The notes beneath the pieces are model-generated. The model searched no databases. It had not been told where the DNA came from and worked only from the letters and a program-made list of their open reading frames with translations. The position numbers were made by a program, and so were the translations under genes. DNA of 64,000 nt from a virus, in IMG/VR virus record IMGVR_UViG_3300034198_017016, positions 7,595 to 71,594 of that record. One strand, given 5' to 3'. Of this stretch, positions 8,429-31,100 are shown piece by piece; the stretch's first letter is position 1; every line of letters starts with the position of its first letter.

Positions 8429-10126
8429 ATGTCAAAAGCAAAATACAAAATTCTTGTAGTTCCATCGGATCGTACAGGTGTAGGATTTTTTAGATCCACC
8501 AAACCACATATTAGATTACAAGAATTATATCCCGATCTTTTTCACGTAGATATAGATTATGAACCAAGATTAGACGACGATAATTACTTAAAACAATATG
8601 ACTTAATTCATTATCATAGAACTTTGGGTCCTTATGACAAAATCGAATTACTTTTAAATAAGTTAGATAGTTTTGGAATTAAAACTATAATGGATCTTGA
8701 TGATTATTGGAGTCCTGGCACACATCACCCCGCTTATCATTTAATTAAGAATTCAAATCTTGATAAAATGATTTTAGACAATATAAAATTAGCAAGATGG
8801 GTCGCTACTACTACTCCTGCCTTTGCGGATGAAATAAGAAAATATAATAAAAATGTAGTTATCCACCCAAACACAATAGATCCTGAAGAGGATCAATATA
8901 TAATAAGAGAAGTTGAAAAGAAAAATGAAAGAGTTAGAATTGGTTGGTTAGGTGGTAGTTGTTTTGACGATAAAACTGAAATTTTAACTGAAAATGGTTA
9001 CAAATTATTTTCACAATTACATGAAGATGAAAAAGTTTTGATGTTTGATCCTGAAAAAGATGAGTATAAATTTGTAAAACCAAGTGCACATATTAGAATA
9101 GAATTTGAAGGTAAATTAAATTGTGCAGTTACTGATGAGATTGATTACGCAGTTACCCCAAACCATAATATGGTAATTTTAAATAATGGTAAGTTAGAAT
9201 TAATTCCTTCAGAGAAATTATATGGCACTACATTTATAATACCTAAACGTCACAATATGAAAGAAACCATAAAACCTGAGGATCAAACACAAATTGACTA
9301 TAAAGGTTTGGTCTATTGTGTAGAAGTCCCAACACACATAATTTGTGTGAGAAGAAATGGGAAATCAATGCTTTGTGGAAATTCACATAAACACGATTTA
9401 GAAATACTAAGACAAAATGTAAAAAAACTACATGGCGATAAATTAACAGATCACGTTAGATTTTATTTATGTGGGTATGATTTGAGGGGTACTGTAACTA
9501 TGATTGATCCAAATACTAAGGAACAAAAACAAAGACCAATTCAACCAAAAGAATCGGTATGGTACGAATATGAACAAATGTTTACTGATAATTTTACTAC
9601 AGTAACTCCGGCATATAAAGAATGGTTACATAAATTTGAGAAAAATGGAATTTATGACACTACTAACGAACCATATGAAAGAGTTTGGACAAAACCAATT
9701 ACGACATATGCGACAAATTATAATAATTTTGATATTGCTCTTGCTCCACTTGAAGAAAATATTTTTAATAAAGTTAAGTCACAATTAAAAGTTATTGAAT
9801 CAGGGTTCTTTAAGAAAGCACTAATTGCCCAAAATTACGGTCCATATAAAATTGATTGTATAAATGCTTGGGAAAAAGGCAATTGGAACCCTAAAGGTAA
9901 CGCACTATTAGTCGATTCTGTTAAAAATCATAAAGAATGGTATGAACACATGAAAAGGTTAATAAAAAATCCTAATGCAGTGGTTGATTTGGGTGAAAAA
10001 TTATATGAAACTGTTAAAGATAGATATCATATCAATACTGTTACGCATCAAAGGAAAGATTTTTATATTGCATTAATTGAAAATGAAATAAATCATTATA
10101 AAAAACATCAACACGAGATGGCCTAA
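8429..10126 (+). CDS. GT-B (GT4-like) glycosyltransferase interrupted by an intein
   Basis: DLDDYW, RIGWLGGS/SHKHDL, DIALAPLEENIFNKVKSQLKVIE are phage GT motifs. Confidence 0.85.
   Translation: MSKAKYKILVVPSDRTGVGFFRSTKPHIRLQELYPDLFHVDIDYEPRLDDDNYLKQYDLIHYHRTLGPYDKIELLLNKLDSFGIKTIMDLDDYWSPGTHHPAYHLIKNSNLDKMILDNIKLARWVATTTPAFADEIRKYNKNVVIHPNTIDPEEDQYIIREVEKKNERVRIGWLGGSCFDDKTEILTENGYKLFSQLHEDEKVLMFDPEKDEYKFVKPSAHIRIEFEGKLNCAVTDEIDYAVTPNHNMVILNNGKLELIPSEKLYGTTFIIPKRHNMKETIKPEDQTQIDYKGLVYCVEVPTHIICVRRNGKSMLCGNSHKHDLEILRQNVKKLHGDKLTDHVRFYLCGYDLRGTVTMIDPNTKEQKQRPIQPKESVWYEYEQMFTDNFTTVTPAYKEWLHKFEKNGIYDTTNEPYERVWTKPITTYATNYNNFDIALAPLEENIFNKVKSQLKVIESGFFKKALIAQNYGPYKIDCINAWEKGNWNPKGNALLVDSVKNHKEWYEHMKRLIKNPNAVVDLGEKLYETVKDRYHINTVTHQRKDFYIALIENEINHYKKHQHEMA
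8960..9382 (+). mobile_element. 141-aa mini-intein (Hint domain, no homing endonuclease)
   Basis: begins CFDDKTEILT (block A), has VTPNH (block B), YKGLVYCVEVP (block F), ends CGN followed by +1 Ser. Confidence 0.9.
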
Positions 10127-10128
10127 AT

Positions 10129-10158
10129 AAAAGGGAAGATTTTTTTCTTCCCTTTTTT
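10129..10158 (+). terminator. rho-independent terminator
   Basis: AAAAGGGAAGA-loop-TCTTCCCTTTT plus T tail. Confidence 0.75.
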
Positions 10159-10202
10159 GTTTTTTAAATTTTTAAATAGTATCTTTATAAAAAAAATATA
10201 TT

Positions 10203-10850: not shown

Positions 10851-10900
10851 TTATCTTTTCTTTTAATTGAAAAATTATTATATTTAAAAAAAATAAAAAT

Positions 10901-11479
10901 ATGTGGGAATCATATAATTACGAAGGTTTTAATCCCCAAGAAATGTTTAGTGGAAATACTACCCATACCGGAGAAGAGGGATTAAAATTTAATTTACAAG
11001 AAATTTTAAATAATGCAAAAATTATCATTAAATTTAAAAATAATTCCAATAACCCCGACCCCATATACGCCCATGAAGGTGATTCAGGGTTTGATTTACG
11101 GGCTTATATACCACTTGAAGATAACGTCACAAAAAGGACTATAATTATACCCCCTATGGGTAGAAAATTAATCTCAACAGGATTATTTTTTGAATTACCT
11201 GAAAGTTATGAGTTACAAATTAGAAGCAGATCAGGACTTGCGGTTAAACATGGTATAGGAGTATTAACGGGTACAGTTGATAATGCATATAGAGGTGAGG
11301 TACATGTTCTTTTGATTAACTTAGGAGATGAACCTTTTAAAATTGAAAATGGTGACAGAATTGCTCAGGGAATAATTGTACCAAGACTTTCAACTGAATT
11401 TGGTTTGTTAGTAAAAGTCGATAACATAAACGAAACTAAACGAGGAGATGGTGGTTTCGGTTCTACAGGTAAAAAATAA
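10901..11479 (+). CDS. dut: trimeric dUTPase
   Basis: SGFDL, RSRSGLA, GTVDNAYRGE, GDRIAQ, RGDGGFGSTG. Confidence 0.95.
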   Translation: MWESYNYEGFNPQEMFSGNTTHTGEEGLKFNLQEILNNAKIIIKFKNNSNNPDPIYAHEGDSGFDLRAYIPLEDNVTKRTIIIPPMGRKLISTGLFFELPESYELQIRSRSGLAVKHGIGVLTGTVDNAYRGEVHVLLINLGDEPFKIENGDRIAQGIIVPRLSTEFGLLVKVDNINETKRGDGGFGSTGKK

Positions 11480-11480
11480 T

Positions 11481-13037
11481 ATGATAACAGTAGTATATAG
11501 CACAAGAAAAGAAAATCCCGAATATCAAAAACATATTAAACAAACTATAGGTTTAAAAGATTTTGAAATTTTAGAATATACAAATGAAAGGCAATATTCA
11601 TTAACTGAACTTTATAATAAAGGGTTAAATGAATCATCAAACGATATTGTAATATTCATTCACGATGATTTATTATTTGAACAAGATTCTAAATGGGGTA
11701 AAAAAATAATTAAACATTTTAATAATTCTGATTTTGGTATTTTAGGTAAGGCGGGAACTACGTCTTTAACTCAAAGTGGAAGGTGGTGGGATGAAACACA
11801 TCTTATGGTTGGGTCAGTATATCATACCCAATATTACGAAGAAACTAAAAAAAGAGTTACTTGGGAAAGTAGGTATTCGGGATTATTTCATGATAAAATT
11901 ATTCCTGTTGTACTTGTAGATGGATTATTTATTGCAGTAAACAAAAAAAGAATTAAAAAAAATTTTGATGAAAACATAAAAGGTTTTCACCTTTACGATG
12001 TAGATTTTTCTATTGCAAATTATTTTGCAGGTGTTAAGATTGGGGTTATATTTGATTTTAAATTAACCCATAAATCTATTGGAATGACTAATGAAGAATG
12101 GGAGCAAAATAGAAAACAACTTGTTCAAAAATGGGCATTTTATACTGACGATCAAGGTAATAAAAAATTAGGACTACCTGTAAGTATTGAACCGAATAAA
12201 ATTGAATACGAAGAAGTTAAAGTTAAAATTAAGAATGAACCAAAAGTTGCGGTTATTATACCGACTAAATCTAAATTAGATATTCTTTTTAAATGTCTAG
12301 ATTCATTTAGGGAAAAATCTAAATACCAAAACTATAAAATATATATTGCAGATACTGGATCAAGTGATAATGAAATAATTTCAATACAAAATTATATTGA
12401 TAATCATAATTTTGAAAAATATGAGTTAATAAAATATGATTATTATAATTTTGCAAAAATTAATAACGATGTGGTTAATAATCATATTGAAAAAGATACC
12501 GAACTTTTACTATTCTGTAATAATGACATTGAATTAATTAATGATGCGTTATCTATAATGGTAGACCATTATCTTAAACATAAAAATGAAGTTGGTACAA
12601 TAGGTGCTAGATTACATTTTCCAAATCATAGTGTGCAACATGCCGGCGTAATAATTGGGATTAGAAAAGATAATTCTTTATTTTTATCTCATAGAGGGTT
12701 AAAATCTTACTATAATTATGAACCTAAAATGGTTTATAATGTATTTGGGTCAACCGGTGCTTTTTTAATGATACCTAAAATGCAATTTGAAAAAGTTAAT
12801 GGTTTTAATCAAAATTATAACGAATGTTTTGAAGATGTGGAATTAAATGTTAGACAAATTTTAAATGGAAAAATAAATATGTTTTGTGGGGACGCGGTTT
12901 GTATTCACTATGAAAGTCTCACTAGGGGGGAAGGAAAACAACAAAGAGAAACTAAAGATTTTAATGAAGTTTTAGTCCCTTTAATGAAAGATTGTTTAAA
13001 TAATGAAAAAATACGTAAACATTTAATATTAGGGTGA
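11481..13037 (+). CDS. two-domain GT-A (GT2-like) glycosyltransferase
   Basis: N-domain FIHDD, DGLFIA, GFHLYDVD; C-domain VIIPT, ADTGS, NNDIE, GARL, QHAG, EDVE. Confidence 0.9.
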   Translation: MITVVYSTRKENPEYQKHIKQTIGLKDFEILEYTNERQYSLTELYNKGLNESSNDIVIFIHDDLLFEQDSKWGKKIIKHFNNSDFGILGKAGTTSLTQSGRWWDETHLMVGSVYHTQYYEETKKRVTWESRYSGLFHDKIIPVVLVDGLFIAVNKKRIKKNFDENIKGFHLYDVDFSIANYFAGVKIGVIFDFKLTHKSIGMTNEEWEQNRKQLVQKWAFYTDDQGNKKLGLPVSIEPNKIEYEEVKVKIKNEPKVAVIIPTKSKLDILFKCLDSFREKSKYQNYKIYIADTGSSDNEIISIQNYIDNHNFEKYELIKYDYYNFAKINNDVVNNHIEKDTELLLFCNNDIELINDALSIMVDHYLKHKNEVGTIGARLHFPNHSVQHAGVIIGIRKDNSLFLSHRGLKSYYNYEPKMVYNVFGSTGAFLMIPKMQFEKVNGFNQNYNECFEDVELNVRQILNGKINMFCGDAVCIHYESLTRGEGKQQRETKDFNEVLVPLMKDCLNNEKIRKHLILG

Positions 13038-13804
13038 TGAAATTGGGTGTAAGTTATAATTTATTTGATGGTGAAGAATTACTTGAGGGATCTATAAGAC
13101 AAATTAGAGATCAAGTTGATTATATAAGTGTGGTCTATCAAACCATTTCTAATTTTGGTAACCCTTCTAATGTAGAACTTGTTAATTTTTTAAATAACTT
13201 AAAAAATGATGGTTTAGTTGATGAATTATTTGAATATACTCCGAGAGTAAATTCGGGTGGACATTCAAATGAAATAACCAAAAGAAATATAGGTTTATCT
13301 TTATCTGTTGGGTCAAAATGTACTCATCATATGTCTATGGATTCTGATGAATATTATTTACCTGAACAATTTAAATTTTTAAAAGAAGAAATGTTAAATG
13401 GAGATTATGATTCTTCATTTTGTCAAATGAAGACATATTATAAGTCTTGGGAATATCAATTAGATCCACCTGAAGATTATTATGTATCATTAATTTATAA
13501 ACTAAATCAATATAGTTTATATGAAATGGGTAAACCAAGTCCAGTATTGGTTGATCCGACTAGAAGAATGGAATCAGGTAAATATATAATTTTTAAAAGA
13601 GATGAAATTGAAATGCATCATGGTTCTTACATTAGAAATAATATAAAGACAAAATTAGAAAATAGTTCTGCATCAGTGAACTTTAAAAGTGACATAGAAA
13701 AAATAACAGAACATTATAACAATTGGGAATATCCTAACAAAGTATTGTGGGGTGGATTACCTAGTAAATTATTTAGTGTTAAAAAAATTAAAAATTTATT
13801 TTAA
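13034..13804 (+). CDS. putative GT-A glycosyltransferase
   Basis: KRNIGL...MSMDSDEYY DxD motif. Confidence 0.7.
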   Translation: MMKLGVSYNLFDGEELLEGSIRQIRDQVDYISVVYQTISNFGNPSNVELVNFLNNLKNDGLVDELFEYTPRVNSGGHSNEITKRNIGLSLSVGSKCTHHMSMDSDEYYLPEQFKFLKEEMLNGDYDSSFCQMKTYYKSWEYQLDPPEDYYVSLIYKLNQYSLYEMGKPSPVLVDPTRRMESGKYIIFKRDEIEMHHGSYIRNNIKTKLENSSASVNFKSDIEKITEHYNNWEYPNKVLWGGLPSKLFSVKKIKNLF

Positions 13805-13808
13805 AAAT

Positions 13809-14474
13809 ATGGAATTAAATGATATAATGATTAAATATGGGACAGATAAACAAAAAGTCCTACACAATTACGTTCAATTTTATGAAAAGTATTTTGAACC
13901 TATTAAAAATGAGAAATTAAAAATATTGGAAATTGGTATTTATCGTCCACCTGCTGGCAGTCCAAATTCTGTAGGTGCCTCATTAAAAACATGGAAAGAT
14001 TATTTTGTTAATTCTAAAATATATGGTGTTGATTTAGGTTTATTTGATGATGTTGACGATGGGAATATTAAAACAATACTTGCAGACCAAGAATTAAGAT
14101 ATGGTAATGATAGTGTTAAAGGACTTAATGAAGTAATAGAAAATTTTGGATCAGATTTTGATATTATTATAGATGATGGTGGTCATACAATGTTACAACA
14201 ACAAATAACTTTGGGTTTTATGTTTAAATATTTAAAAAGTGGTGGTCTATTCATTATAGAGGATTTACACACTTCTTATTTTGCCCCATTCGCTTATAAC
14301 AAAACAAATACTAATAACACAACATTGAATATGGTACAAAATTATATAAATAAAGGTACTATTATTAGTGACTTTATTACCCAAGAAGAGAATGAGTATT
14401 TGATATCTAATATAAAAGAAATGAAAATGTATAAGGGTAACCATTCTGAAATTGTTTTCATAGAAAAAAAATGA
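13809..14474 (+). CDS. class I SAM-dependent (sugar O-) methyltransferase
   Basis: YGTDK, ILEIGI, YGVD, DQ, FDIIIDDGGH, GGLFIIEDL (MycE/OleY-like pattern). Confidence 0.85.
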   Translation: MELNDIMIKYGTDKQKVLHNYVQFYEKYFEPIKNEKLKILEIGIYRPPAGSPNSVGASLKTWKDYFVNSKIYGVDLGLFDDVDDGNIKTILADQELRYGNDSVKGLNEVIENFGSDFDIIIDDGGHTMLQQQITLGFMFKYLKSGGLFIIEDLHTSYFAPFAYNKTNTNNTTLNMVQNYINKGTIISDFITQEENEYLISNIKEMKMYKGNHSEIVFIEKK

Positions 14475-15361
14475 AAAATTGTTTTATCATATCTTTTTTT
14501 CTTAATTCGGAAGAAAGTTTATTAATTTTAGAGGACATGTTATTAAGGTTATCTTCTAATTTTAATAATTCTACATTTATCATAGGTTTTAACCCATCAC
14601 CTTTTGTACCAAAGGCAATTCAATTACTTAACAAATATGAAGAAATAGAAATTTTATATGATGTGGTTGAAGATCATTTGGTTTGTAATTCTGATGCATC
14701 AGGGTTTCAAAGTGCTTTAAAAACTTTAAAAAATAGTAAACGTAGTTATGATTTGTATTGGTTTTTACATAGTAAAGCGGTAACTACAGGTAGACATGAA
14801 GAAAGAGAATACATGTTAAATGATTTTATTAATAATAAAACCGATATACAAAATCTTTTCTTTGAAAATAATTTTGTAGGTTCGTATGGCGATATGTTAA
14901 TTCACCTTGGCACCCTTAAAAAGGGTCATAAGTATTCGACACCTACAAATAGTGGTAATTATATGGATAATTTTTATAATTTTAAAATTAAATCTCCTTT
15001 GGAATATTTTTATGCTAAAACTTTTTATGTTATAAGGGGTGAGATTATTAATAACTTTATTAATATGTGTGATTTATCTTTTTTTAATGATAATTTAAAT
15101 ATTAATGGAACTTTATATGGGAAAATAACTGACAGATATTTTTTTGAGAGAGATTTTATAAGAATTGTAGATAAAATGGGATTTTTAGTTTTAGGGAGAG
15201 TGATATCTAACTATATAAGTGATAATAGATGGGGGTTTTTAACAACTAAAGAATCAAATGACATATATTTGGAAGAAGTTAGTATGTGGATAGATATTAA
15301 TAATCTAAATTTAGAAAAAGAAAAAATTTTAAATACTATAAAAAAATGGCAAAGAACGTAA
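14471..15361 (+). CDS. hypothetical, possibly rhamnan-synthesis/GT-like protein
   Basis: YWFLHSK and YFFER resemble RgpF-like motifs; lies within the glycan locus. Confidence 0.45.
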   Translation: MKNCFIISFFLNSEESLLILEDMLLRLSSNFNNSTFIIGFNPSPFVPKAIQLLNKYEEIEILYDVVEDHLVCNSDASGFQSALKTLKNSKRSYDLYWFLHSKAVTTGRHEEREYMLNDFINNKTDIQNLFFENNFVGSYGDMLIHLGTLKKGHKYSTPTNSGNYMDNFYNFKIKSPLEYFYAKTFYVIRGEIINNFINMCDLSFFNDNLNINGTLYGKITDRYFFERDFIRIVDKMGFLVLGRVISNYISDNRWGFLTTKESNDIYLEEVSMWIDINNLNLEKEKILNTIKKWQRT

Positions 15362-16413
15362 TAACAGTAACTGGTATTAGACCAGATTTCATAAGAATGT
15401 CTGAAATTTTTAAAAAATTAGATGAAAATTTTAATCATACATTAATACATAGTGGACAACATTTTGATAAATTGTTATCAGACGTTTTTTTTGAAGAATT
15501 AAACATTAGAAGACCTGATTATAATTTAGGTGTAGGCGGTGACAATAGAGAACATTTTCACCAAAACGCTGACTTATCCATTAAATTAATAGAGTTAATT
15601 CGTAACGAAAATTTAAATCCTGATATAATTTTATTTTTAGGGGACTCAAATTCTGTAACTTGTTCAGTACCATTAAAAAAAGAAGGTTATAAAATAGGTC
15701 ATGTAGAAGCGGGTATGCGTTCTTACGATAAAAGAATGTTAGAGGAAATAAATAGAGTAGTATGTGATCATTGTAGTGATATTTTATTTGTTTATCATGA
15801 AAATTATAAAGAAAAGGCTGTTAAAGAAAACATAGATCCTAATAGTATTTTTGTTGTTGGCAATACAATTGTAGAAATAGTTAAAAAATTTAAATTTAAT
15901 CAACCAAAAAGAGACGATTTAATTTTAGTGGATATCCATAGACCTGAAAATTTCAAGTACATTGAAAGAATGGAAAATATAATAGAGTATGCAAATTTAA
16001 TGGGTCAAAAATTTAAAAAACCAATCATTATGTTAGGGTTTAAAAGGACTTTAGATCATATAAAAAAATTTAATTTAAATTTAGGTAATATAAAAATTGT
16101 TGATTTGATGCCATATGGCGAATATATCCAAACTGTTTATAACAGTTCTTTTATAATTTCAGATTCAGGAACCGGTCAAGAAGAACCTGCAATATTAGAT
16201 ACACCTGTTATTGTACCTAGAGATTTTACTGAAAGACCCGAATCAATGGAAAATAATTGTTCTTTTATGATTAATGTTAATAAAAAAAATGATTTAAGTT
16301 GGACTTTATCGGAAAAATGGTTATCATTAGAATGTAAAAATAAAAATGTTGATTGGTTGGGTGATGGAAAAACTTCAGACAATGTAATTAATATATTAAA
16401 AAAAATATTATGA
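15346..16413 (+). CDS. UDP-N-acetylhexosamine 2-epimerase (WecB/FnlC/WbjD family)
   Basis: GIRPD, HSGQH, GD, HVEAGMRS, EEINR, VGN, HRPEN, SDSG, QEE, TERPE. Confidence 0.92.
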   Translation: MAKNVITVTGIRPDFIRMSEIFKKLDENFNHTLIHSGQHFDKLLSDVFFEELNIRRPDYNLGVGGDNREHFHQNADLSIKLIELIRNENLNPDIILFLGDSNSVTCSVPLKKEGYKIGHVEAGMRSYDKRMLEEINRVVCDHCSDILFVYHENYKEKAVKENIDPNSIFVVGNTIVEIVKKFKFNQPKRDDLILVDIHRPENFKYIERMENIIEYANLMGQKFKKPIIMLGFKRTLDHIKKFNLNLGNIKIVDLMPYGEYIQTVYNSSFIISDSGTGQEEPAILDTPVIVPRDFTERPESMENNCSFMINVNKKNDLSWTLSEKWLSLECKNKNVDWLGDGKTSDNVINILKKIL

Positions 16414-17201
16414 TATCAATTGTTTCGGCTTATCACAATAGAAAAAATTTACTTTTTAACACTTTAAAAAGTTTAGAAAATTCAAATTATAAAGATTTTG
16501 AATTTATTTTAGTGGATGATTGTAGTGATGATCAACATAGAGTTGAAGAATTTTGTGAATTATTCCCTTTTTTAAAAATTGTAAGATTAGAAAAAAAAGA
16601 TAAGTGGTATATAAATCCTTGTGCGGTTTTTAATAAAGGGTTTAAAGAAGTAAAAGGTGAAATAGTTATTATACAAAATCCTGAGTGTTTACACATTGGA
16701 GATGTTTTAAGTTTTGCCTCTAAAATCAAAGATGAAGAATATATTAGTTTTAGTTGTTATTCTATTAATAAAGAAAAAACTGAAAATTTAACTAATTTAA
16801 TTCATAATACCAATGATTTAAATAATGAATCATTATTAAAACTAATTCAACCTGAATACAAATCAGTTGGATCTGATGGTGATAATGGATGGTATAATCA
16901 CCCTGTAATGAGACCAGTTGGTTATCATTTTTGCTCTGCAATTACTACAAAAAATTTATATGATTTAGGTGGTTTTGATGAAAGGTATGCTATGGGTATT
17001 TCATATGATGACGACGAATTTTTAATTAGAATTAGAAAAAAAGGTTTAAAAATAAAAATAATTACACACCCGTTTGTAACACACCAATGGCATTATAGTG
17101 GTCATAATTATCAAAATATGAACATAAACGAATTAGTAAAAAAAAATAGGGATTTATTACAAATAACCATTAACCAACCTTCTTGGATTGCTAACAAATA
17201 A
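16410..17201 (+). CDS. GT2 family glycosyltransferase
   Basis: ISIV, LVDDCS, NKG, GGFDE, DDDE. Confidence 0.88.
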   Translation: MISIVSAYHNRKNLLFNTLKSLENSNYKDFEFILVDDCSDDQHRVEEFCELFPFLKIVRLEKKDKWYINPCAVFNKGFKEVKGEIVIIQNPECLHIGDVLSFASKIKDEEYISFSCYSINKEKTENLTNLIHNTNDLNNESLLKLIQPEYKSVGSDGDNGWYNHPVMRPVGYHFCSAITTKNLYDLGGFDERYAMGISYDDDEFLIRIRKKGLKIKIITHPFVTHQWHYSGHNYQNMNINELVKKNRDLLQITINQPSWIANK

Positions 17202-17214
17202 AAATATAAAAAAT

Positions 17215-17997
17215 ATGAAAGTATTCGATTGTTTTAAGTTTTTTAACGAATTAGAGTTATTAGAGCTACGATTAATGGAGTTAAATGATGTCGTAGACTA
17301 TTTTGTATTAGTTGAAGCTAATAAAACTCACACAGGGCTACCTAAAGAATATATTTTTGAAAATAATAAAATAAAATTTTCTAAATATATAGATAAAATA
17401 ATACACGTAAAAGTTGATGATTTACCACCATATTCTAAAGAAGATATATGGTCTGCGGAAAATTTCCAAAGAAATTGTATTATGAGGGGACTTATTGATG
17501 TTGCAGAAAATGGGGACAAAATTATTATTTCTGATATTGACGAAATTCCAAACACCGAAGTAATAAAAAATAATTTAAATAATCAAAACGTGGTAACATT
17601 TAGGCAAAAATTATACTATTATTATGTTAATTGTGAACAAAATTGTCATTGGGATGGACCTATAATGGCAACTTACGGGACTTTTAATAATCCGCAACAA
17701 TTAAGAAATGCTGCAAGGTCAGGTTTAAATGCGGTAAATAATGGTGGTTGGCATTATAGTTTTATGGGTGGAGCCGAAAGAGTTAAATTAAAAGTTGAAA
17801 GTATTGCAGAATCACATTATATTATCGATAATGTTGGTTCAGTAGAAGAAATTAAAAATAAAATGGAAAATCAAAAAGATTTGTGGAATAGAACTGAATC
17901 TTATGCACAAAAAAGAATAGTAGATATAACTAATAATAAACCTAAAATGATGGATAATTTTTTAGATAAATATCCTGATTTTTTTTATAAAACATAA
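17215..17997 (+). CDS. GT17-like N-acetylglucosaminyltransferase
   Basis: FDCF.FFNEL.LLELR..EL...VDYFVLVE, ENFQRN, SDIDEIP, GGWHYSF. Confidence 0.85.
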   Translation: MKVFDCFKFFNELELLELRLMELNDVVDYFVLVEANKTHTGLPKEYIFENNKIKFSKYIDKIIHVKVDDLPPYSKEDIWSAENFQRNCIMRGLIDVAENGDKIIISDIDEIPNTEVIKNNLNNQNVVTFRQKLYYYYVNCEQNCHWDGPIMATYGTFNNPQQLRNAARSGLNAVNNGGWHYSFMGGAERVKLKVESIAESHYIIDNVGSVEEIKNKMENQKDLWNRTESYAQKRIVDITNNKPKMMDNFLDKYPDFFYKT

Positions 17998-18003: not shown

Positions 18004-18966
18004 ATGAAGGGTAAAAAAATATTAATTATTGGTGGTACCGGTTCATTAGGTAACATGTTAATTAAAAAATATCAAGATACTAATGATATTTTGGTCTATA
18101 GTAGAAATGAACATAAACAAGTGACATTGGGATCGGAACCTTGGTTAAATAAAGATTCAGTTTCTTTTATGATAGGGGATATAAAAGATAGAGACTCTAT
18201 TTGGAATGCTATAGAAATTTATAAACCTGACGTTGTTATCAATACTGCCGCCTTAAAACATGTCACTGTTTGTCAAACAGATCCGTATGAGTCTGTTAAA
18301 GTTAACATAATAGGTCACCAAAATCTAATAGAAGTTTTAAAAAGATCTAAACATAAAGTAGAAACTTTAATTTTTATATCGACTGACAAAGCTTGTAAAC
18401 CTATTAATGTTTACGGTATGTGTAAGGCGATATCAGAAAATTTATATGTAGATTTTGCTAAAAAACAAGATGAAATAAAAGTTTGCTTAGTACGTTATGG
18501 TAATGTATTAAATTCAAATGGTTCTGTGATACCTTTATTTAAAAAATTATTGTCTGAACGCACCGAATACTTACCTATTACTGATAATAGAATGACTAGA
18601 TTTTTATTACCATTAGAGGACGCGATAAAATTAATAGATTGGACATACAATAACCCAAACTCGCACGGTAAAATTGCAGTACCTAAAGTGAAATCTTTTA
18701 AAATAACTGACATTGCTAAGGCATTGATAAAATCAACATATGGTACTGAAAACGCCATACCATTAAAAATTGTCGGTATTAGACCTGGTGAAAAATTGCA
18801 TGAAGAGATGATATCAGAAGAAGAATGGATGAAAACGGAAGAAGAAGAAAACTATTTAATAACAACAAAACATTTAACCGATGATATAAATAGTTACAAT
18901 TCATACGATTCGCTTATGTGTAGCGACGATGTTTATGATTTTTTAAAAATTAATAATATAATATAA
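18004..18966 (+). CDS. UDP-GlcNAc 4,6-dehydratase (FnlA/CapE/PseB-like)
   Basis: GGTGSLG, YSRNE, GDIKD, AALKHV, STDKA, YGMCK, RYGNV, MTRF, GIRPGEKLHE. Confidence 0.9.
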   Translation: MKGKKILIIGGTGSLGNMLIKKYQDTNDILVYSRNEHKQVTLGSEPWLNKDSVSFMIGDIKDRDSIWNAIEIYKPDVVINTAALKHVTVCQTDPYESVKVNIIGHQNLIEVLKRSKHKVETLIFISTDKACKPINVYGMCKAISENLYVDFAKKQDEIKVCLVRYGNVLNSNGSVIPLFKKLLSERTEYLPITDNRMTRFLLPLEDAIKLIDWTYNNPNSHGKIAVPKVKSFKITDIAKALIKSTYGTENAIPLKIVGIRPGEKLHEEMISEEEWMKTEEEENYLITTKHLTDDINSYNSYDSLMCSDDVYDFLKINNII

Positions 18967-18987
18967 TATATTTAGAAAAAAATAAAA

Positions 18988-19725: not shown

Positions 19726-19741
19726 ATTAAATTAGGTTTTT

Positions 19742-20266: not shown

Positions 20267-20277
20267 ATAATAAATTT

Positions 20278-20892: not shown

Positions 20893-21827
20893 AAAAAATT
20901 TTAATTTTTGGTGGTTTTGGATTTATGGGTAAAAATTTAAATAAAGTTTTTACTAACTCCGACTATGAAATTTACAATGAAAGTAGGTCAACAGGGTGTG
21001 ATATGATTGATTTAGAATCAGTCATATTAACTATTAAAAAAGTTAATCCTGATATTATCATTAACGCCGCGGCCCATGTAGGTAGTATTGACTATGTGAC
21101 AAAATATGCGGCAAATGTTGTCAGAGACAATTCTTTAATGTATTTAAACTTATATGAGGCAGTAAAACATGTTAATCCTAAAATAACAATCATTAACCCA
21201 ATCTCTAATTGTTCATATCCAGGGATTGTTGATATTCAAAATGAAATAGATTGGTGGAATGGTTCGATTCATACATCGGTTGAATCTTATGGCACACCTA
21301 AAAAATTAGGATTCATTGTTTCCGAATGCTATAAAAAACAGTTTGGAATTAAAACGGTTAATTTAATTATACCTAATTCCTACGGACCCGGAGATTATAC
21401 AGATCCAAACAAAACACATGCCATGAATGGTATTATTATAAGAATGTTAACGGCAAAAAATAATAATGATTCAGTATTCACCGTATGGGGGACAGGAACA
21501 CCTATACGAGAATGGATTTATATGGAGGATGTTGTCAATATTATTAAATTAATGATTGATAATGAAATGTATTCCACACTACCAAATCCCATTAATTTGG
21601 GACAAGAAGAAGGTATATCAATTATGAATACAGTTTTAATGGTACAAAAAATTTTAGATTATAAAATAGAGATAGTTTGTGACACTACAAAACAAGATGG
21701 TGCACCTATAAAAATTTTAGGAAAAAAATTATTTCAAAAATATTTCCCTAATTTTAAATTTACTTCATATGAAGAAGGTATTAAGAATACCATTGAGTAT
21801 TATACAAATATAATACCCTATTATTAA
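20889..21827 (+). CDS. GDP-L-fucose synthase-like epimerase/reductase
   Basis: GGFGFMG, AAHVGSI, CSYP, YGTPK, YGPGD, VWGTGTPIREWIY, DGAP. Confidence 0.85.
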   Translation: MKKILIFGGFGFMGKNLNKVFTNSDYEIYNESRSTGCDMIDLESVILTIKKVNPDIIINAAAHVGSIDYVTKYAANVVRDNSLMYLNLYEAVKHVNPKITIINPISNCSYPGIVDIQNEIDWWNGSIHTSVESYGTPKKLGFIVSECYKKQFGIKTVNLIIPNSYGPGDYTDPNKTHAMNGIIIRMLTAKNNNDSVFTVWGTGTPIREWIYMEDVVNIIKLMIDNEMYSTLPNPINLGQEEGISIMNTVLMVQKILDYKIEIVCDTTKQDGAPIKILGKKLFQKYFPNFKFTSYEEGIKNTIEYYTNIIPYY

Positions 21828-21852
21828 TAGTATAAATTATAAAATATATATT

Positions 21853-22797
21853 ATGAAAAAAATTTTTATTACGGGTGGTGCGGGTTATATAGGAACTACG
21901 TTAATTCCTATGTTATTAAATGAAGGTTATCAGATTACCGTATACGATTCGTTAATGTTTAATAATGGTGATAAATTATTACCATATATTAGTAACCCTA
22001 ATTTTACTTTTATAGAAGGAGATATACGAGATAGTATTTTACTATCTAATAAAATTAAAAATCATGATATTGTTATACATTTGGCTGCATTAGTCGGATT
22101 CCCTATTTGTAGAGAAAAGGGAGAAGTCGAATCTTACAATGTTAATGTGTTAGGTACTAATAATGTAGTCAATTCATTAACAAATGAACAATATTTATTG
22201 TTTGGATCAACTGGGTCAAATTACGGAGAAATTTTTGGCATATGTACTGAAGAAACAACTTTAAATCCCCTGTCAATTTACGGTAAAACAAAAACGGAGG
22301 CAGAAAAAATTGTATTGTCAAGAGATAATAGCATCGCATTTAGATTTGCGACCGCATTTGGGGTATCTCCTAGATTAAGGTTAGATTTATTAGTGAATGA
22401 TTTAACTTTTAAATCAATTAAAGAAGGATATGCGGTTATATATGAGTCACATTTTATGAGAACTTTTATTCACGTAAAAGATATCGCAAGAGTATTTTTA
22501 TTTGCGATAAAAAATATTGACATAATGAAAAATAATGTGTATAATGTAGGTTCAGACACAATGAATTATTCTAAAAGAGATATATGTGAAATCATTAAAT
22601 CTAAGATCCATAACACATATTTTAATTATGCCGATGTGGGAACAGATGCAGATAAAAGAAACTATATTGTTAGTTATGAAAAAATAAATAAATTAGGGTT
22701 TAATACGACTATTAGTTTAGAAGATGGCATAGATGAGTTAATTAAGGCAGTATCACTAATTAAAATTAATAATCCATATTATAACATTTTAAAGTAA
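21853..22797 (+). CDS. NAD-dependent sugar epimerase/dehydratase (SDR)
   Basis: TGGAGYIG, HLAALVG, YGKTK, RLRLDLLVN. Confidence 0.9.
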   Translation: MKKIFITGGAGYIGTTLIPMLLNEGYQITVYDSLMFNNGDKLLPYISNPNFTFIEGDIRDSILLSNKIKNHDIVIHLAALVGFPICREKGEVESYNVNVLGTNNVVNSLTNEQYLLFGSTGSNYGEIFGICTEETTLNPLSIYGKTKTEAEKIVLSRDNSIAFRFATAFGVSPRLRLDLLVNDLTFKSIKEGYAVIYESHFMRTFIHVKDIARVFLFAIKNIDIMKNNVYNVGSDTMNYSKRDICEIIKSKIHNTYFNYADVGTDADKRNYIVSYEKINKLGFNTTISLEDGIDELIKAVSLIKINNPYYNILK

Positions 22798-22807
22798 ATT
22801 ATATTAT

Positions 22808-23731
22808 ATGAAAAATAAAACAGGTTGGTTAGTTAATGATAGATTAACCGCAATACCAAACACAAGAACATTTTGGCACGATTTATTAGATTGGTTTCCT
22901 AATCTACAAGATAAGTGCGACGGATATACAGATTATTCTATATTACCAAATAAAATTGAATCTATTAAAGAACGACCTGATTATATAATCAGAAATGGTA
23001 GTTATTTTCGTAAACTTAATATTGACGTTCCAACATTTTGTTTAATTCAAGATACAATGAATAATCCAATGCAAACTGAAGTTATAAATTCATGCACGTG
23101 TGTTGTATTTGCTTCTAAACAAACTTATCATCTTTATAAAGATAGAATTAACCCCAAAAATGTGAGAGTAATTGAACAATCATCAGATTTTAATTTTTTT
23201 AAACCTATTAATGAAAGACATCCTGATGTTTTACCTAATTCAATTATTTTTATTGGTGATTCTTCTCATGAAAAAAAAGGTTTTCATAGAGTACAACATC
23301 TAATTGAAACGATGACTGACTTTAATTTTTGTTTAGTTATGAAAGATAATACTACTATTGATTCCATTCCATCTCACAATAGAAACCGAGTGCGTATATT
23401 TAATAGAGTTGATACGAATACCGTTAGACTTTTAATTAACTCATCAGTATGTGCCATTTGTACTTCGGGGAATGAAGAAGGACATTTTGCGGGGATAGAA
23501 ATAGGTGCCTGTGATATACCTATGGTGGCTAGACCTATGGGGTGTTATTTAGATAGGAAGGATGATAAAACTTGGGGATTAATTGCCAATGACGAAGATT
23601 TTCCTGAGACAATAAGATATGTCACTAATAATCGACATTTATTTAGTCCACGTAATTATTATTCAAAAGAATATACACTAGAAAGGTGTCGCGAAAAATG
23701 GACTAATTTAATAAATGAATTTGTTAATTAA
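22808..23731 (+). CDS. GT-B glycosyltransferase
   Basis: IFIGD...KKG, TS..E.......E.GACDIP (ExE-like GT4 motif). Confidence 0.7.
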   Translation: MKNKTGWLVNDRLTAIPNTRTFWHDLLDWFPNLQDKCDGYTDYSILPNKIESIKERPDYIIRNGSYFRKLNIDVPTFCLIQDTMNNPMQTEVINSCTCVVFASKQTYHLYKDRINPKNVRVIEQSSDFNFFKPINERHPDVLPNSIIFIGDSSHEKKGFHRVQHLIETMTDFNFCLVMKDNTTIDSIPSHNRNRVRIFNRVDTNTVRLLINSSVCAICTSGNEEGHFAGIEIGACDIPMVARPMGCYLDRKDDKTWGLIANDEDFPETIRYVTNNRHLFSPRNYYSKEYTLERCREKWTNLINEFVN

Positions 23732-23761: not shown

Positions 23762-24601
23762 ATGAAATTTACTGTAGAAATATTAACAGGATTATGTAAT
23801 GTTTTAAAATCATTTGTAACGGCATTAAGTATAGGTGATGCTAATGTCCTGCCTAGATTTGATGTTCATTTTGATGCTGATTATAATGAAATTTTGGATG
23901 ATAGTTTGATTTGCCACGGCCGTGAAGAATTTGGTACTTCATTTGTCACTGCAAGATTTTTAATTTTAAAATCAGAAGAATCAGAACAACCTGATTTAGT
24001 TAATGATACTAAAGCATGGGGAGACCACCCCAACATTAGAGAAAAAAGTATCGCTCACATGTTTTCAACGCACACAATTGATTGGTTTTTTGATAGAAAT
24101 CTTATATCAGATGTGGTCTATAATAGAATTCAAAGTGGAATTAAAAAAATTAAATGGAAAAATGAAGTGTTGTCCGAGGTAGAAAGAATTTCAAGAGAGT
24201 TTGAATATCCACTACTTTCGATACAGATAAGAACTTGGGCTCATAAATTTGATCCACCTAATTGTATAAATATTAGAGACGGAGTTCCAAGAGGATACAA
24301 CTTTGGGACGTATATGGAAGCAATTGAAAAATTCATACAAAGTGATACACCACCAAAAACCATTTTTCTTAGTGCCGATATTGATTCTGTTTTACCCGAA
24401 TATTTAGATTATTTAAAAAAATATAACATTAAAGTAGTTACATATACTCAACCAGAACACGTAACGCAAATGCAATATTCTGCGGCAAGTATGTTAATTG
24501 CTTCAAAATGTGATATGTTAGTTTGTAATCGTATCAGCACATTTGCAGAATGTATTTGGTGGTTTGGTGGGTGTAAAGCCACCACAATACCTCTTTTTTA
24601 A
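23762..24601 (+). CDS. putative fucosyltransferase-like (NodZ/O-FucT-fold) glycosyltransferase
   Basis: GLCNVL, SIQIRTW, IFLSAD, SKCD...STF...WWFGG. Confidence 0.6.
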   Translation: MKFTVEILTGLCNVLKSFVTALSIGDANVLPRFDVHFDADYNEILDDSLICHGREEFGTSFVTARFLILKSEESEQPDLVNDTKAWGDHPNIREKSIAHMFSTHTIDWFFDRNLISDVVYNRIQSGIKKIKWKNEVLSEVERISREFEYPLLSIQIRTWAHKFDPPNCINIRDGVPRGYNFGTYMEAIEKFIQSDTPPKTIFLSADIDSVLPEYLDYLKKYNIKVVTYTQPEHVTQMQYSAASMLIASKCDMLVCNRISTFAECIWWFGGCKATTIPLF

Positions 24602-24636: not shown

Positions 24637-25164
24637 ATGAAAAAATTAGGTTATGCAGGTTCTAAATATAATCATTCAGATTTGATAACTGAATTGGTTA
24701 AACAACTTGATTGTAGTTCTTATCTAGAATTAGGGGTTTACGATGGGGTTACACTCTCTAAGGTTAAAAATTATGTAGACAGGTTAATATCAGTAGATAT
24801 TAAGGATATAAGAAAAGAAAAAATTGGGGAATTTTATTTAGACACTACTGACAATTTTTTTAAAAATTTTAACGATCAAGTAGATTTTATTTTTATTGAT
24901 GCAGATCATAGTTTTGAATCGGTTAAACGAGATTTTGAAAACTCTATAAAATTATTATCTCCGTTTGGTATGATTGTTTTACATGATACCGACCCAATTA
25001 CAAAAGAATATCTAGCACCTAATTATTGTAATGATTCGTATAAGATGGATGAATGGATTAGAAAAAATTATCATGATTTAGATATTATGACTTTACCTTT
25101 AACCGAGGCAGGATTATCGTTAATAAAAAGAAAAAATGATAACAGAGTAAATAAATTTATTTAA
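24637..25164 (+). CDS. class I SAM-dependent methyltransferase (Methyltransf_24-like)
   Basis: YLELGV, SVD, FIFIDADH, GMIVLHD. Confidence 0.85.
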   Translation: MKKLGYAGSKYNHSDLITELVKQLDCSSYLELGVYDGVTLSKVKNYVDRLISVDIKDIRKEKIGEFYLDTTDNFFKNFNDQVDFIFIDADHSFESVKRDFENSIKLLSPFGMIVLHDTDPITKEYLAPNYCNDSYKMDEWIRKNYHDLDIMTLPLTEAGLSLIKRKNDNRVNKFI

Positions 25165-25165
25165 A

Positions 25166-26541: not shown

Positions 26542-26557
26542 AAAAAATAAAAAAATT

Positions 26558-27388: not shown

Positions 27389-27456
27389 AATCATTGAAAA
27401 TCAAATATAAAACTTTATAATTTAAATTTTTATCATATATAATATATTTATAATAT

Positions 27457-28263: not shown

Positions 28264-28305
28264 ATTTTTACTTTACTAATCTTATTTTTTTAATAGTTTT
28301 AATGT

Positions 28306-28899
28306 ATGATCATAGGAATATCTTTAGATGACGTACTTAGAGATTTTTTAGGTAAATTCAAATCCGTTTACAAAAAAGAATTTGATAAAGACCCAATTGA
28401 GCCAATCAATAGTTTAGATCTTTTAACTCATTTTCCGTTTGATACTGAATCTGAGTTGTATACTTTTTTATATGAAGATTTTAGTTTAGAATTATTTGGT
28501 CACGCAAATGAAAAATATAAAAATGCGGTAATTGACTTAAATAATTTGTATCTACAACATAAAGATAATCACGAATTTATTATAATATCAAAAGAAGTAG
28601 GAAACTCAATACCCGCAACTTTATTCTTTTTAAGTAAAACATCTTGTAAATTAAGAAACTATAGATTTGTTTCTAATAATGATTATGTTTGGGAATATTG
28701 TGACATAATGATTAGTGCAAACCCAAACATATTGATCAATAAACCTGAAAATAAAATTTCAATAAAAGTTAAATCTGAATATAATACTGACATAAAATCA
28801 GATTATGAAGTTGAAAAATTAAAAGATATATTAGAAAATAATATTCTTTCAAATGTATCAAATACTAAAATAATATCATTTACAAAAATAGACGAATGA
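28306..28899 (+). CDS. HAD-superfamily 5'(3')-deoxyribonucleotidase-like protein
   Basis: IGISLDDVLRDF start and YN near the C-terminus; first catalytic Asp replaced by Ser. Confidence 0.55.
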   Translation: MIIGISLDDVLRDFLGKFKSVYKKEFDKDPIEPINSLDLLTHFPFDTESELYTFLYEDFSLELFGHANEKYKNAVIDLNNLYLQHKDNHEFIIISKEVGNSIPATLFFLSKTSCKLRNYRFVSNNDYVWEYCDIMISANPNILINKPENKISIKVKSEYNTDIKSDYEVEKLKDILENNILSNVSNTKIISFTKIDE

Positions 28900-29219
28900 G
28901 AAATTACGAATATGATAAAACTTACTTAGAATTTGGTGGTGATTATTTATACATTGATTTTGATGAAGTAATTAACACAGTTAAATTAGAAGGCGTACCT
29001 CAAAAAGATGATGAAGGAAATGATTTACCTGCGGGGGTACTAACTATAGACGTTACTAAATGGGAATTAATTAATAAGATGATTGATACTATCTTGGATG
29101 AGGTAGGTGAAGAAGACCCAACTTTAGGTAAAAAAAATCTTGACAAATTATCAGTAAGTTTTAAACTTGCATATAATACACTATTAAATTATAATATCAT
29201 TAAAATTGTAGAAGAATGA
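28896..29219 (+). CDS. hypothetical protein
   Basis: 107 aa, ATGA-coupled to both neighbours. Confidence 0.75.
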   Translation: MRNYEYDKTYLEFGGDYLYIDFDEVINTVKLEGVPQKDDEGNDLPAGVLTIDVTKWELINKMIDTILDEVGEEDPTLGKKNLDKLSVSFKLAYNTLLNYNIIKIVEE

Positions 29220-30304
29220 CAAACGAAAGAAATCAACAAATTTTAGAAACACTAAAAAAAATAGAAAATAATGATTTTAATATCTATTTTTTTGTTTTGG
29301 ATTCCAAAGGAAATCCAATTGGAGAATTAACGTACATATATGAACACGCAAAAATTCTCAGAGAAAATGGATTTAACTCCATTATAGTAACCGAAAAGAA
29401 CGAATATACAGGAGTTGCTGATTGGTTAGGTGAGGAATATATGCAGATTCCACATATGTCAGTAGAATCACAAAATTTAAAAATAGGTCCTCAAGATTTT
29501 TTAATTATTCCTGAAATATTTGCCAATATAATGGATCAAACAAAACAATTCCCTTGTAAGAGAATTGTGTTTTCTCAGAGCTATGATTATATTTTAGAAA
29601 TTTTAAACATAGGTGCTAAATGGTCTGATTATGGAATTAAAGACTGTATTGCCACCACAGAAAAACAAAAACAATATATAAACGAATTGTTTAATAATAT
29701 AAATGTTGAAGTAGTACCTTTAGGTATTCCTGAATATTTTAAACCTACAGATAAATTACAAAAACCTGTAATATCTCTTTCTTGTAGAGACCCAAGAGAC
29801 ACCACAAAAATTGTAAAATCATTTTACTTGAAATATCCACAGTACAAATGGGTTACATTTAGAGATATGAAAGGTTTACCTAGAACTACATTTGCTCAAA
29901 CATTATCTGAGTCTTGTTTGGCAGTTTGGGTTGATCCAATCGCATCATTTGGTACATTTCCTATTGAGGCAATGAAATGTGGGGTACCTGTTATCGGTAG
30001 AGTACCACACATGATACCTGAATGGATGGAAGAATCTGGAGATCAAGGACAAGAAAAAATGTTAAAAGAAAATGGTATTTGGACTTATGATACTTTAAGA
30101 TTGCCCGATTTAATTGCAACTTTTATTAGACTTTGGTTGGAGGACAACATACCAACTGACGTTTATGAAAAAATGAAAGATACCCCTTCCAAATATACAA
30201 TGGAATCTATGAATTCATTAGTTTTAGATTATTACAAGAGACAAGTAAATGCTAGAATTGCCGAATTATCTACATCAATAACGACAGAAAAAACAAACGC
30301 ATAA
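29216..30304 (+). CDS. GT-B (GT4-like) glycosyltransferase
   Basis: IIPE, SFGTFPIEAMKCGVPVIG. Confidence 0.8.
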   Translation: MTNERNQQILETLKKIENNDFNIYFFVLDSKGNPIGELTYIYEHAKILRENGFNSIIVTEKNEYTGVADWLGEEYMQIPHMSVESQNLKIGPQDFLIIPEIFANIMDQTKQFPCKRIVFSQSYDYILEILNIGAKWSDYGIKDCIATTEKQKQYINELFNNINVEVVPLGIPEYFKPTDKLQKPVISLSCRDPRDTTKIVKSFYLKYPQYKWVTFRDMKGLPRTTFAQTLSESCLAVWVDPIASFGTFPIEAMKCGVPVIGRVPHMIPEWMEESGDQGQEKMLKENGIWTYDTLRLPDLIATFIRLWLEDNIPTDVYEKMKDTPSKYTMESMNSLVLDYYKRQVNARIAELSTSITTEKTNA

Positions 30305-30305
30305 T

Positions 30306-31100
30306 ATGAAAGATATTACAGTTATATTGCCGGTACACGAATTCGCTGAAGACACCACAAAATGGTTAAAAATGGCCATAAATAGTGTAAATACGCAAAC
30401 AGAACTTCCTGAAAAATTTATAATAGTTTATAATCCCGAAATTGAAAATGATATAAAATCTTCAATCGGAGACGAAGAAATTAGTAACATAAAAAATATA
30501 ATTACTTATCTCCCAAACACTACGGGTGAGTATGATTTTAGTAGTCAAATAAATTTTGCATCAGAACATGTAAGTACTGAATATTTTTCATTTATTGAAT
30601 TTGATGATGAGTATTCTAGAATTTGGTTTAAGAATGTTAAAAAATATATTAACACATATCCTGAAGTTGACTTATTTCTACCAATTGTAGTGGAGACTGA
30701 CCCAAATGGAAACTTTATTTCATTTACTAATGAAAGCGTTTGGGCAAAAGATTTTTCAGAAGAGATGGGAATTTTAGATAACAATACTTTATCTCGATAT
30801 GCTAATTTTAATTTTGACGGTATGGTGATAAAAACTAAAACTTTTGAAAAATTGGGGAGATTAAAACCATCAATTAAATTAACATTTATTTATGAATTTT
30901 TACTTAGATTAACTTTTAATGATACTAAAGTTATGGTAATTCCTAAATTAGGATATCGTCATAGTAATCAAAGAGCAGGATCTTTATTTGTAAAATATCA
31001 AACAACTCTTTCCCAAGACGAGGCGAGATTTTGGCTTAATTTGGCTAAGAAAGAATACTTCTTTAAAGAAGATAGAAAAATAATGTATGAACCGGTTTAA
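30306..31100 (+). CDS. GT2-like glycosyltransferase
   Basis: DITVILPV, AINSV..QT, EFDDE, YEFLLRL, YRH. Confidence 0.8.
   Translation: MKDITVILPVHEFAEDTTKWLKMAINSVNTQTELPEKFIIVYNPEIENDIKSSIGDEEISNIKNIITYLPNTTGEYDFSSQINFASEHVSTEYFSFIEFDDEYSRIWFKNVKKYINTYPEVDLFLPIVVETDPNGNFISFTNESVWAKDFSEEMGILDNNTLSRYANFNFDGMVIKTKTFEKLGRLKPSIKLTFIYEFLLRLTFNDTKVMVIPKLGYRHSNQRAGSLFVKYQTTLSQDEARFWLNLAKKEYFFKEDRKIMYEPV

Follow-up and report, generated by a model that had tools for sequence, protein, structure and literature searches.

The subject of this analysis is an island of glycan genes at positions 8429-31100 of a 64,000-nucleotide (nt) stretch of viral DNA (the window), which covers bases 7595-71594 of the 71,594-base linear virus record IMGVR_UViG_3300034198_017016 of IMG/VR. 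The source is a T4-like jumbo phage, and the island is built of conserved ends around a variable middle, which is swapped as a cassette between related phages. Its glycosyltransferases (GTs) and sugar enzymes are soluble, and the visible DNA holds no lipid-carrier genes. We give an even chance to the proposal that the glycan is placed on proteins of the phage itself, for example its fibres.

The span is tiled by 27 open reading frames (ORFs), all on the + strand, and 22 of them are glycan genes: 11 GT-like genes, 2 methyltransferases, 1 acetyltransferase, 1 aminotransferase-like gene and 7 nucleotide-sugar enzymes. Together with the sigma-like gene at the island boundary they are the following (aa, amino acids; SDR, short-chain dehydrogenase/reductase; a single coordinate gives the position by which the gene is named):

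8429-10126, + strand: conserved GT-B-like glycosyltransferase, 565 aa (phrog_7162 'glycosyltransferase', 5e-38)
8960-9382, + strand: putative 141-aa mini-intein inside this GT (residues 178-318)
10203, + strand: 3'-5' exonuclease (phrog_25228, 1.5e-21)
10901-11479, + strand: dUTPase (PF00692, 7.7e-25)
11448-13037, + strand: double-domain GT (Glyco_tranf_2_5, 1.9e-24; Glycos_transf_2, 2.6e-11)
13034-13804, + strand: GT-A-like lead (neighbouring Atlas cluster 32% GT2)
13752-14474, + strand: methyltransferase
14471-15361, + strand: RgpF/WbsX-like GT (Atlas structure search, TM-score 0.64-0.66)
15346, + strand: WecB-like 2-epimerase
16410-17201, + strand: GT2 (6.5e-13)
17188-17997, + strand: GT17-like gene (3.2e-29)
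18004, + strand: PseB/FnlA-like 4,6-dehydratase
18988-19725, + strand: GT-A fold protein (Foldseek: TarP, SpsA, glycogenin, GnT-I, E about 1e-5; model pLDDT 65)
19742-20266, + strand: NeuD/PglD-type hexapeptide N-acetyltransferase
20278-20892, + strand: DegT-like aminotransferase-like protein, 204 aa
20889, + strand: Fcl-like reductase
21853, + strand: SDR, best solved match PDB 6vo6
22808-23731, + strand: GT1-like (GT-B-like) gene (Pfam, 0.003; phrog_2170, 4e-6)
23762-24601, + strand: FucT-like lead (Pfam O-FucT, 0.19; PDB POFUT1, 0.042)
24637-25164, + strand: methyltransferase (Methyltransf_24)
25166, 26122 and 26480, + strand: trio of SDR (6vo6-like), RmlC-like cupin and RmlD-like reductase
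27457, + strand: PhoH (PF02562, 9.4e-58)
28306, + strand: NT5C-like HAD nucleotidase
28896-29219, + strand: conserved 107-aa protein of unknown function
29216-30304, + strand: GT1-like (GT-B-like) core GT, 362 aa (weak, 0.0027)
30306-31100, + strand: GT2-like core GT, 264 aa (2.6e-5, above the cut-off)
31107-31856, + strand: sigma-like gene (gp55-like), island boundary (Sigma70_r2 PF04542, 1.4e-6)

The GT calls were drawn from Pfam and phrog family searches, two Atlas look-ups and one usable fold model; nine of the GT-like genes are supported and two (13034-13804 and 23762-24601) are leads only. A profile search against PDB sequences matched nothing for genes 18988 and 8429 and gave for 13034 only PPR matches, which we judged spurious, and the fold model for 23762-24601 was unusable (pLDDT 47). 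An initial annotation of this DNA had counted about 11 GT-like genes on one strand, 2 methyltransferases, an acyltransferase, an aminotransferase and 7 nucleotide-sugar enzymes, at a scale likened to that of giant viruses. The counts agree with ours, with the aminotransferase in a shortened form, and so does the scale, since roughly 20 GT-like genes are carried by the syntenic relative G001 (240,759 bases, 82% complete). Its description of one glycan system of about 22.7 kb, ending at the late sigma factor, needs amending on two points. The large gene set is real, but five non-glycan genes (10203, 10901, 27457, 28306 and 28896) interrupt the span, which the nucleotide-metabolism genes divide into three parts, the dUTPase gene overlapping the first gene of the main island at 11448-11479. 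The boundary gene is sigma-like by its Sigma70_r2 match, but it reaches the 'late sigma' family phrog_234 at only 2.8e-4.

Relatives of the island were collected with the GT17-like query (32 viral contigs) and the sigma-like query (5 contigs), and the synteny comparison called for by the initial annotation reveals two conserved ends. On the left, GT 8429-10126 is 46-51% identical in relatives (identity matrix). On the right, a block of PhoH, NT5C-like nucleotidase, 107-aa protein, GT pair and sigma-like gene is wholly or mostly present in L003, L004/L005, L035, L037 and L038, and in parts only in L036 and L039. The GT-B-like gene 29216 recurs in L003, L004, L005, L035, L037, L038 and L039 at 34-80% identity, the GT2-like gene 30306 in L003 and L035-L039 at 35-85%, and the G001 copies of the pair are 41.5% and 44.8% identical. 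Core GT 29216-30304 has zero matches in 50,697 deposited phage records.

Between these ends the gene content is a mosaic. The left part of the main island (11448-17997) shares 50-82% identity with loci L003-L013, and for genes 18004, 20889 and 21853, which belong to a variable cassette at 18004-22797, relatives offer merely 23-35% matches. GT 22808-23731 is 89-90% identical in L004-L009, its neighbouring genes being 30-75% identical or absent, and the SDR, RmlC-like and RmlD-like trio reaches 57-92%. G001 has a GDP-mannose 4,6-dehydratase at the position of the Fcl-like gene, and L013 carries in addition a sugar C-methyltransferase, a GT92-like protein and a UDP-glucose dehydrogenase. The exchange is complete in L035, the closest relative: PhoH is 96% and the flanking block 81-96% identical to the window, and all eight ORFs upstream of PhoH are without homologue in the window. 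Pfam families were recognised in five of these eight: two are FkbM methyltransferases, and the others are a sugar nucleotidyltransferase, a cupin and a RuBisCO-like protein. The remaining three matched no family. Such wholesale swapping is what would be expected of an exposed surface under selection.

Some further observations on the relatives may be recorded here. The RuBisCO large-chain-like gene (L035:3966-5147; PF00016, 4.6e-33) lies between the cupin and an FkbM methyltransferase gene. G001 possesses a second, 11-kb island of GTs and methyltransferases with fusions of GT1, FkbM and DegT fragments, as well as a separate RXYLT1-like gene (the extra GT loci of G001 are L049:9128-14147, L052:7309-18276 and L053:14825-15700).

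The first GT contains an insert with the features of a class 1 mini-intein, as judged from its sequence. It sits precisely after GWLGGS, starts with Cys, contains TPNH (a T-x-x-H block) and ends in Gly-Asn followed by Ser, and in an alignment its 141 residues are missing from four of four GT homologues of 404-439 aa. Matches of the insert to solved inteins are weak (0.035 and 0.2), and the 8429-10126 protein matched no Pfam intein family. The insert also accounts for the fact that phrogs of ribonucleotide reductase and PhoH are partly matched by this GT.

The initial annotation had further stated that the enzymes look soluble and that no flippase, Wzy, Wzz, ligase or priming transferase is present, and both statements held up. 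A hydropathy scan found convincing transmembrane segments in none of the 27 island proteins (two were marginal, at 1.74 and 1.75), and nowhere in the window is there a protein with four or more hydrophobic segments. Pfam scans of the window returned none of the Bac_transf, Glycos_transf_4, Wzx, Wzy, Wzz, ligase or ABC exporter families. The possibility raised at the time, that lipid-carrier genes might lie elsewhere in the genome, found no support either: such families were likewise missing from the remaining 7.6 kb of the record (bases 1-8100 scanned with Pfam) and from the 268 ORFs of G001, a 405-aa orphan protein with eight hydrophobic segments being the caveat (see below). A six-frame search for PF02397 was negative in all five related records (G001-G005), with its control positive in 10 of 14 known genomes; the record of the window itself was covered for this family by the Pfam scans alone. 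The genes that would mark a Wzx/Wzy- or ABC-type locus, namely a priming GT (PF02397 or PF00953) together with flippase, polymerase, chain-length regulator, ligase or exporter, were thus not found in the window, its record or G001.

These results bear on an alternative which we regard as rather unlikely, namely that the island remodels the host envelope. The GTs would then elongate or replace an undecaprenyl-linked O-antigen, capsule or glycoprotein glycan of the host by way of the host's priming transferase, flippase and ligase, and the altered cell surface would block superinfection or keep progeny off debris. The nearest family names are indeed O-antigen and capsule types (WecB, PseB/FnlA, RmlC/RmlD, RgpF), and solubility does not discriminate here, because GTs acting on lipid-linked intermediates normally are without transmembrane segments; the phage could borrow the priming enzyme and flippase of its host. 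Against this stands the lack of any membrane export component in the window, the rest of the record or the 268 ORFs of the 82%-complete relative, and host flippase and ligase would have to tolerate many swapped glycans.

Evidence for an acceptor among the phage's own proteins comes from two candidate genes 3-5 kb upstream of the island:

5122-5835, - strand: fibre-like gene, candidate glycan acceptor
3558-5120 or 3558-5189, - strand: adjacent fibre-like gene, candidate glycan acceptor

One C-terminus of the pair matches the 'tail protein' family phrog_17312 (2.9e-6), and there is also a weak Laminin_G_3 match. Three of 68 window proteins have at least three copies of the motif [ST][GA]xT, the top two being these neighbours, with 7 copies observed vs 0.6 expected in one and 9 vs 0.5 in the other, a 12- to 18-fold enrichment. 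The homologue in G001 has 14 motifs vs 2.9 expected. Across G001 the motif occurs 158 times vs 80.8 expected, with control motif ratios of 0.97 to 1.16, and the excess is concentrated in ten proteins (103 vs about 23 expected), the remaining 258 having 55 vs about 58. Of the ten, six belong to the sheath, to the SprB-repeat proteins or to the baseplate-to-fibre run, two are homologous to the fibre-like proteins of the window, and two are unassigned (one of 733 aa, one lactonase-like of 816 aa). We considered whether the motif is a general feature of T4-type structural proteins, which a T4 control rules out (28 copies vs 25.3 expected in 28 proteins). An N-glycan sequon was likewise rejected: several motif copies in the window stand in an N-x-S/T-G context, but in G001 N.[ST]G is rarer than chance would give (33 vs 46.6 expected).

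The main island itself lies away from capsid and tail genes; in G001, on the other hand, GTs are found inside the fibre module. Its baseplate/tail-fibre gene run includes a gene of PF11397, the Skp1-type polypeptide GlcNAc-transferase family (1.1e-68), and this module also holds a gene of the HtrL/YibB family, which we take to be a predicted glycosyltransferase family. To our knowledge, all characterised PF11397 members glycosylate polypeptides, and the presence of such a gene among fibre genes also speaks against a host-envelope target. Because of this gene, the [ST][GA]xT enrichment and the cassette swapping, we favour a target among phage proteins. The reading given in the initial annotation, a complex methylated and acylated glycan built directly on the phage's particle, is supported in part. 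A more specific version can be put forward tentatively, with the balance of probability somewhat against it: a methylated, N-acetylated oligosaccharide would be assembled in the cytoplasm, free of lipid, on fibre and sheath proteins at [ST][GA]xT, and cassette swaps would change a 'virion serotype' in the manner of bacterial O-antigen switching.

How might such a glycan be made? The phage would take up common host nucleotide sugars as substrates, such as UDP-GlcNAc and GDP- or dTDP-hexoses or heptoses; they would come from the host, because the window is without a sugar-1-phosphate nucleotidylyltransferase. Phage enzymes would then convert them (4,6-dehydratase or C4-dehydrogenase, C3/C5 epimerase, C4 reductase, aminotransferase-like protein, N-acetyltransferase, 2-epimerase), and about eleven soluble GTs would add the sugars singly in the cytoplasm, with O-methylation, onto an acceptor made by the phage. 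Proteins exposed on the virion, for instance those of fibres and sheath, would be the most likely acceptor, and the outcome would be a strain-specific virion glycotype. No sugar enzyme of the island reaches an NCBIfam equivalog cut-off, so that names cannot be given to the products. Among solved structures the enzymes match best 6vo6 (1.8e-80 and 4e-44), RmlC and GDP-perosamine synthetase. These matches suggest modules in which a 4-keto intermediate is made, epimerised and then reduced or aminated, with GDP- or dTDP-linked sugars as substrates. The structure 6vo6 we take to be Cj1427, the GDP-heptose C4-dehydrogenase of C. jejuni. The pathway of the Cj1427 enzyme is described in the available part of PMC10680097.

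The aminotransferase-like protein (20278-20892, 204 aa) is 73% identical to its G001 counterpart (L045:3567-4190). These short DegT-like proteins of 204-207 aa keep the SF..K lysine aligned with GDP-perosamine synthetase and are without about 40 central residues and the C-terminal domain. The short gene of G001 adjoins a GDP-mannose 4,6-dehydratase and an acetyltransferase gene, an arrangement that recalls the N-acetyl-perosamine route. The PseB-like gene was also tried as a clue to donor or host and was uninformative, with just three matches of 30-32% (Burkholderiales, Nitrosospira metagenome-assembled genomes).

Terminator-like hairpins stand on both sides of the first GT (8330-8348 and 10129-10156), and the next strong one on the + strand is at 37458-37481; with no strong terminator in between, the main island seems to be co-transcribed with the exonuclease and dUTPase genes. 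This apparent co-transcription with early-type genes counts in favour of host-envelope remodelling. The octamer ATATTTAT occurs in 29 copies in the window, of which 15 lie in its non-coding 6% and 13 within 60 nt (12-50 nt) upstream of a start codon on the same strand, and it is a candidate phage promoter element by this distribution. It precedes the prohead protease gene, 48428, 40276, PhoH (motif at 27444), 31890 and the two fibre-like genes (example sites: 5863, 5875, 27444, 31870, 41711, 45950, 45965, 49223 and 62538). Three copies fall inside the main island (12880, 22191 and 24273), none of them ahead of a gene start. Two other promoter types were tried and set aside: the T4 late promoter TATAAATA has just 3 of 28 copies upstream of a start codon (it is contained in 3 of the 13 gene-upstream copies of ATATTTAT), and a sigma-70 promoter scan gave no excess over shuffled sequence (140 vs 147; 103 vs 109).

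Several points weigh against phage proteins as the target and should be considered together. The island stands among replication and nucleotide genes without the candidate promoter motif seen before several structural genes, and a strong terminator between it and the genes for exonuclease and dUTPase is lacking. The [ST][GA]xT motif recurs in the 3558-5189 protein at about 20 residues (positions 85, 103, 124 and 143), so it could be a structural repeat and not a sequon. The visible sequence is about 20% of this phage genome. The orphan protein of G001 mentioned above (L050:8215-9432) may be a divergent Wzy- or flippase-like protein; it had no Pfam match and no homologue in a 5.8-billion-protein search, and a search of G002 and the other fragments of the lineage did not recover it. 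Remodelling of the host envelope is, moreover, the published reading for the cyanomyophage and pelagimyophage islands in the available parts of PMC9602691 and PMC7029224. Finally, we infer the sugar products, the stepwise assembly in the cytoplasm and the protein target from genes alone.

A soluble acceptor other than virion proteins, be it a non-virion phage protein, a host protein, or a free or small-molecule glycoconjugate serving as decoy, signalling or storage glycan, is in our view unlikely. It would agree with enzymes that are all soluble and with the lack of an encoded carrier, with an island that is not beside capsid or tail genes in this record, and with the conserved 107-aa gene of unknown function that is translationally coupled to the core GT pair. 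Pfam scans of the window and G001 turned up no non-ribosomal peptide synthetase, polyketide synthase or lipid scaffold genes, however, and hypervariability is typical of a surface under diversifying selection.

Attachment of the glycan to modified bases of the phage DNA for evasion of restriction, comparable to the glucosylated hydroxymethylcytosine of T4 and to 5-hydroxymethylcytosine glycans, is highly improbable. Phage GTs do put varied glycans on DNA, as the available part of bioRxiv 10.1101/2023.12.21.572611 describes, and the island is embedded among genes for family-B DNA polymerase (PolB), exonuclease, dUTPase, PhoH and the nucleotidase-like protein. The pathways, however, need a C5-methyltransferase with a TET-type oxygenase, or a thymidylate-synthase-type hydroxymethylase, and no such hydroxymethylase, C5-methyltransferase or TET-type Pfam hit was found in the window or G001. 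The thymidylate-synthase family PF00303 was found in none of five records with the control working, and a Tet_JBP search was empty, its control being silent too. It is for the missing thymidylate-synthase-type hydroxymethylase that we consider DNA glycosylation unlikely; in addition, 11 GTs with deoxy- and amino-sugar pathways far exceed the one or two neighbouring GTs in the available part of Pyle et al. (bioRxiv 10.1101/2023.12.21.572611).

The assignment of the source to T4-like jumbo phages rests on its gp23 capsid, gp20 portal, T4-type terminase and prohead protease, which were identified by Pfam scan on the minus strand: Portal_T4 (5.5e-78), Terminase_6N (large terminase), Peptidase_S77 (prohead protease) and

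41775-43583, - strand: gp23-type major capsid gene (Gp23, 5.2e-72)

PolB and a ClpB-like chaperone also are encoded in the window. CheckV completeness of the record is about 20%, and the full genome may accordingly measure roughly 350 kb; the GC content varies within 25-37%, mostly about 28%, and a tRNA scan found zero tRNA genes. The nearest deposited capsids, at 37-43% identity, are those of Microcystis phage Mel-JY01, an uncultured 484-kb phage and Flavobacterium phage immuto. Of 69 window proteins, 45 have a match in G001 (E 1e-5 or better), with 58% identity for the capsid and 45% for PolB.

Outside the island, the stretches 39416-41685 and 59996-62452 hold a papain-like protease, a purple-acid-phosphatase-like gene and the full ClpB-like chaperone; the phosphatase-like gene adjoins the capsid gene within the GC-richest stretch of the window. 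Two genes 3' of the sigma-like gene, after a 123-aa ORF (31890-32261), lies a gene (32264-33694) for a 476-aa protein with two strong membrane segments and no family, which is 67% conserved in L035. The cargo of G001 includes a PPK2-lysozyme fusion, ribosomal protein S21, DnaJ and superoxide dismutase (L041:11908-13695, L043:14756-15040).

Known systems offer several points of comparison. The SprB-repeat proteins of G001 presumably hint at a Bacteroidota host, and the candidate hosts of the lineage would be Flavobacteriia-like members of that phylum. Predicted Bacteroidota hosts are also given for the 'moraphages', aquatic jumbo phages of up to 307 kb, whose core genome comprises four GT orthogroups and no tRNA synthetases in the available part of PMC12619734. 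The two groups are alike as aquatic jumbo phages with chaperone genes (ClpB in the window, DnaJ in G001), and they differ in the tRNA-synt_2-like ORF of G001; a glycan island of the moraphages is not mentioned in the available part of that paper.

A closer likeness is seen with T4-like cyanomyophages and pelagimyophages. Cyanomyophage S-SCSM1 carries 13 genes for building and modifying 'LPS' (lipopolysaccharide)/cell wall, P-SSM2 and S-SSM7 being further cases (PMC9602691, available part), and pelagimyophages possess a GT-rich hypervariable host recognition cluster (PMC7029224, available part). They share with the present phage the backbone of T4-like aquatic myophages (Gp23, portal and terminase in the window; sheath, gp19, gp25 and baseplate J in G001), many GTs combined with GDP- and dTDP-sugar enzymes (Gmd, Fcl, O-FucT-like, RmlB-type), a gene content varying between syntenic relatives, and functions assigned from genes; the GT17-like gene moreover has 31% matches in five Synechococcus phages. 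The present phage differs in its more distant lineage, as the capsid identities cited above indicate, in the conserved GT ends with a core GT unmatched among deposited phages, and, with respect to the pelagimyophage cluster, in the location of the island between dUTPase and PhoH/sigma and not in a tail-fibre region. In the literature, supplements aside, we came upon no experiment that had tested, for a jumbo or T4-like phage, what the target of an island of this type is.

Virion glycosylation as such has precedents. The Che8-type mycobacteriophage system of Freeman et al. (2023) is said to employ 1-3 GTs, in contrast to the 11 GT-like genes with sugar pathways found here. Its O-glycosylation sites are the C-termini of capsid and tail-tube subunits (cited in PMC12619734, available part). 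In both cases the proposal is that soluble GTs encoded by the phage attach sugars to its own structural proteins and need no lipid carrier for this. Among giant viruses, chloroviruses and the Megavirinae with their fibrils have virion glycosylation clusters, and the glycans are chemically shown on capsids or fibrils. Virus-encoded nucleotide-sugar pathways, many soluble GTs and clade-specific cassettes are common to these clusters and the present island, and the Atlas neighbours of 14471-15361 include Nucleocytoviricota clusters. The giant viruses differ in their eukaryotic hosts, and as compared with both precedents the present system is known from its genes alone.

If the sugars do sit on the particle, tailed phages would, like the giant viruses, clothe themselves in complex, strain-specific glycans by means of enzymes of their own. 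This would matter for host recognition, for the evasion of grazers and defences, and for the diversification of abundant water phages. The island is in addition a source of many soluble, divergent sugar enzymes and GTs. Its type is already in print for large aquatic T4-like phages (PMC9602691, PMC7029224, available parts); particular to this island are its position between replication genes and a sigma-like gene, its conserved GT ends, its intein and its scale.

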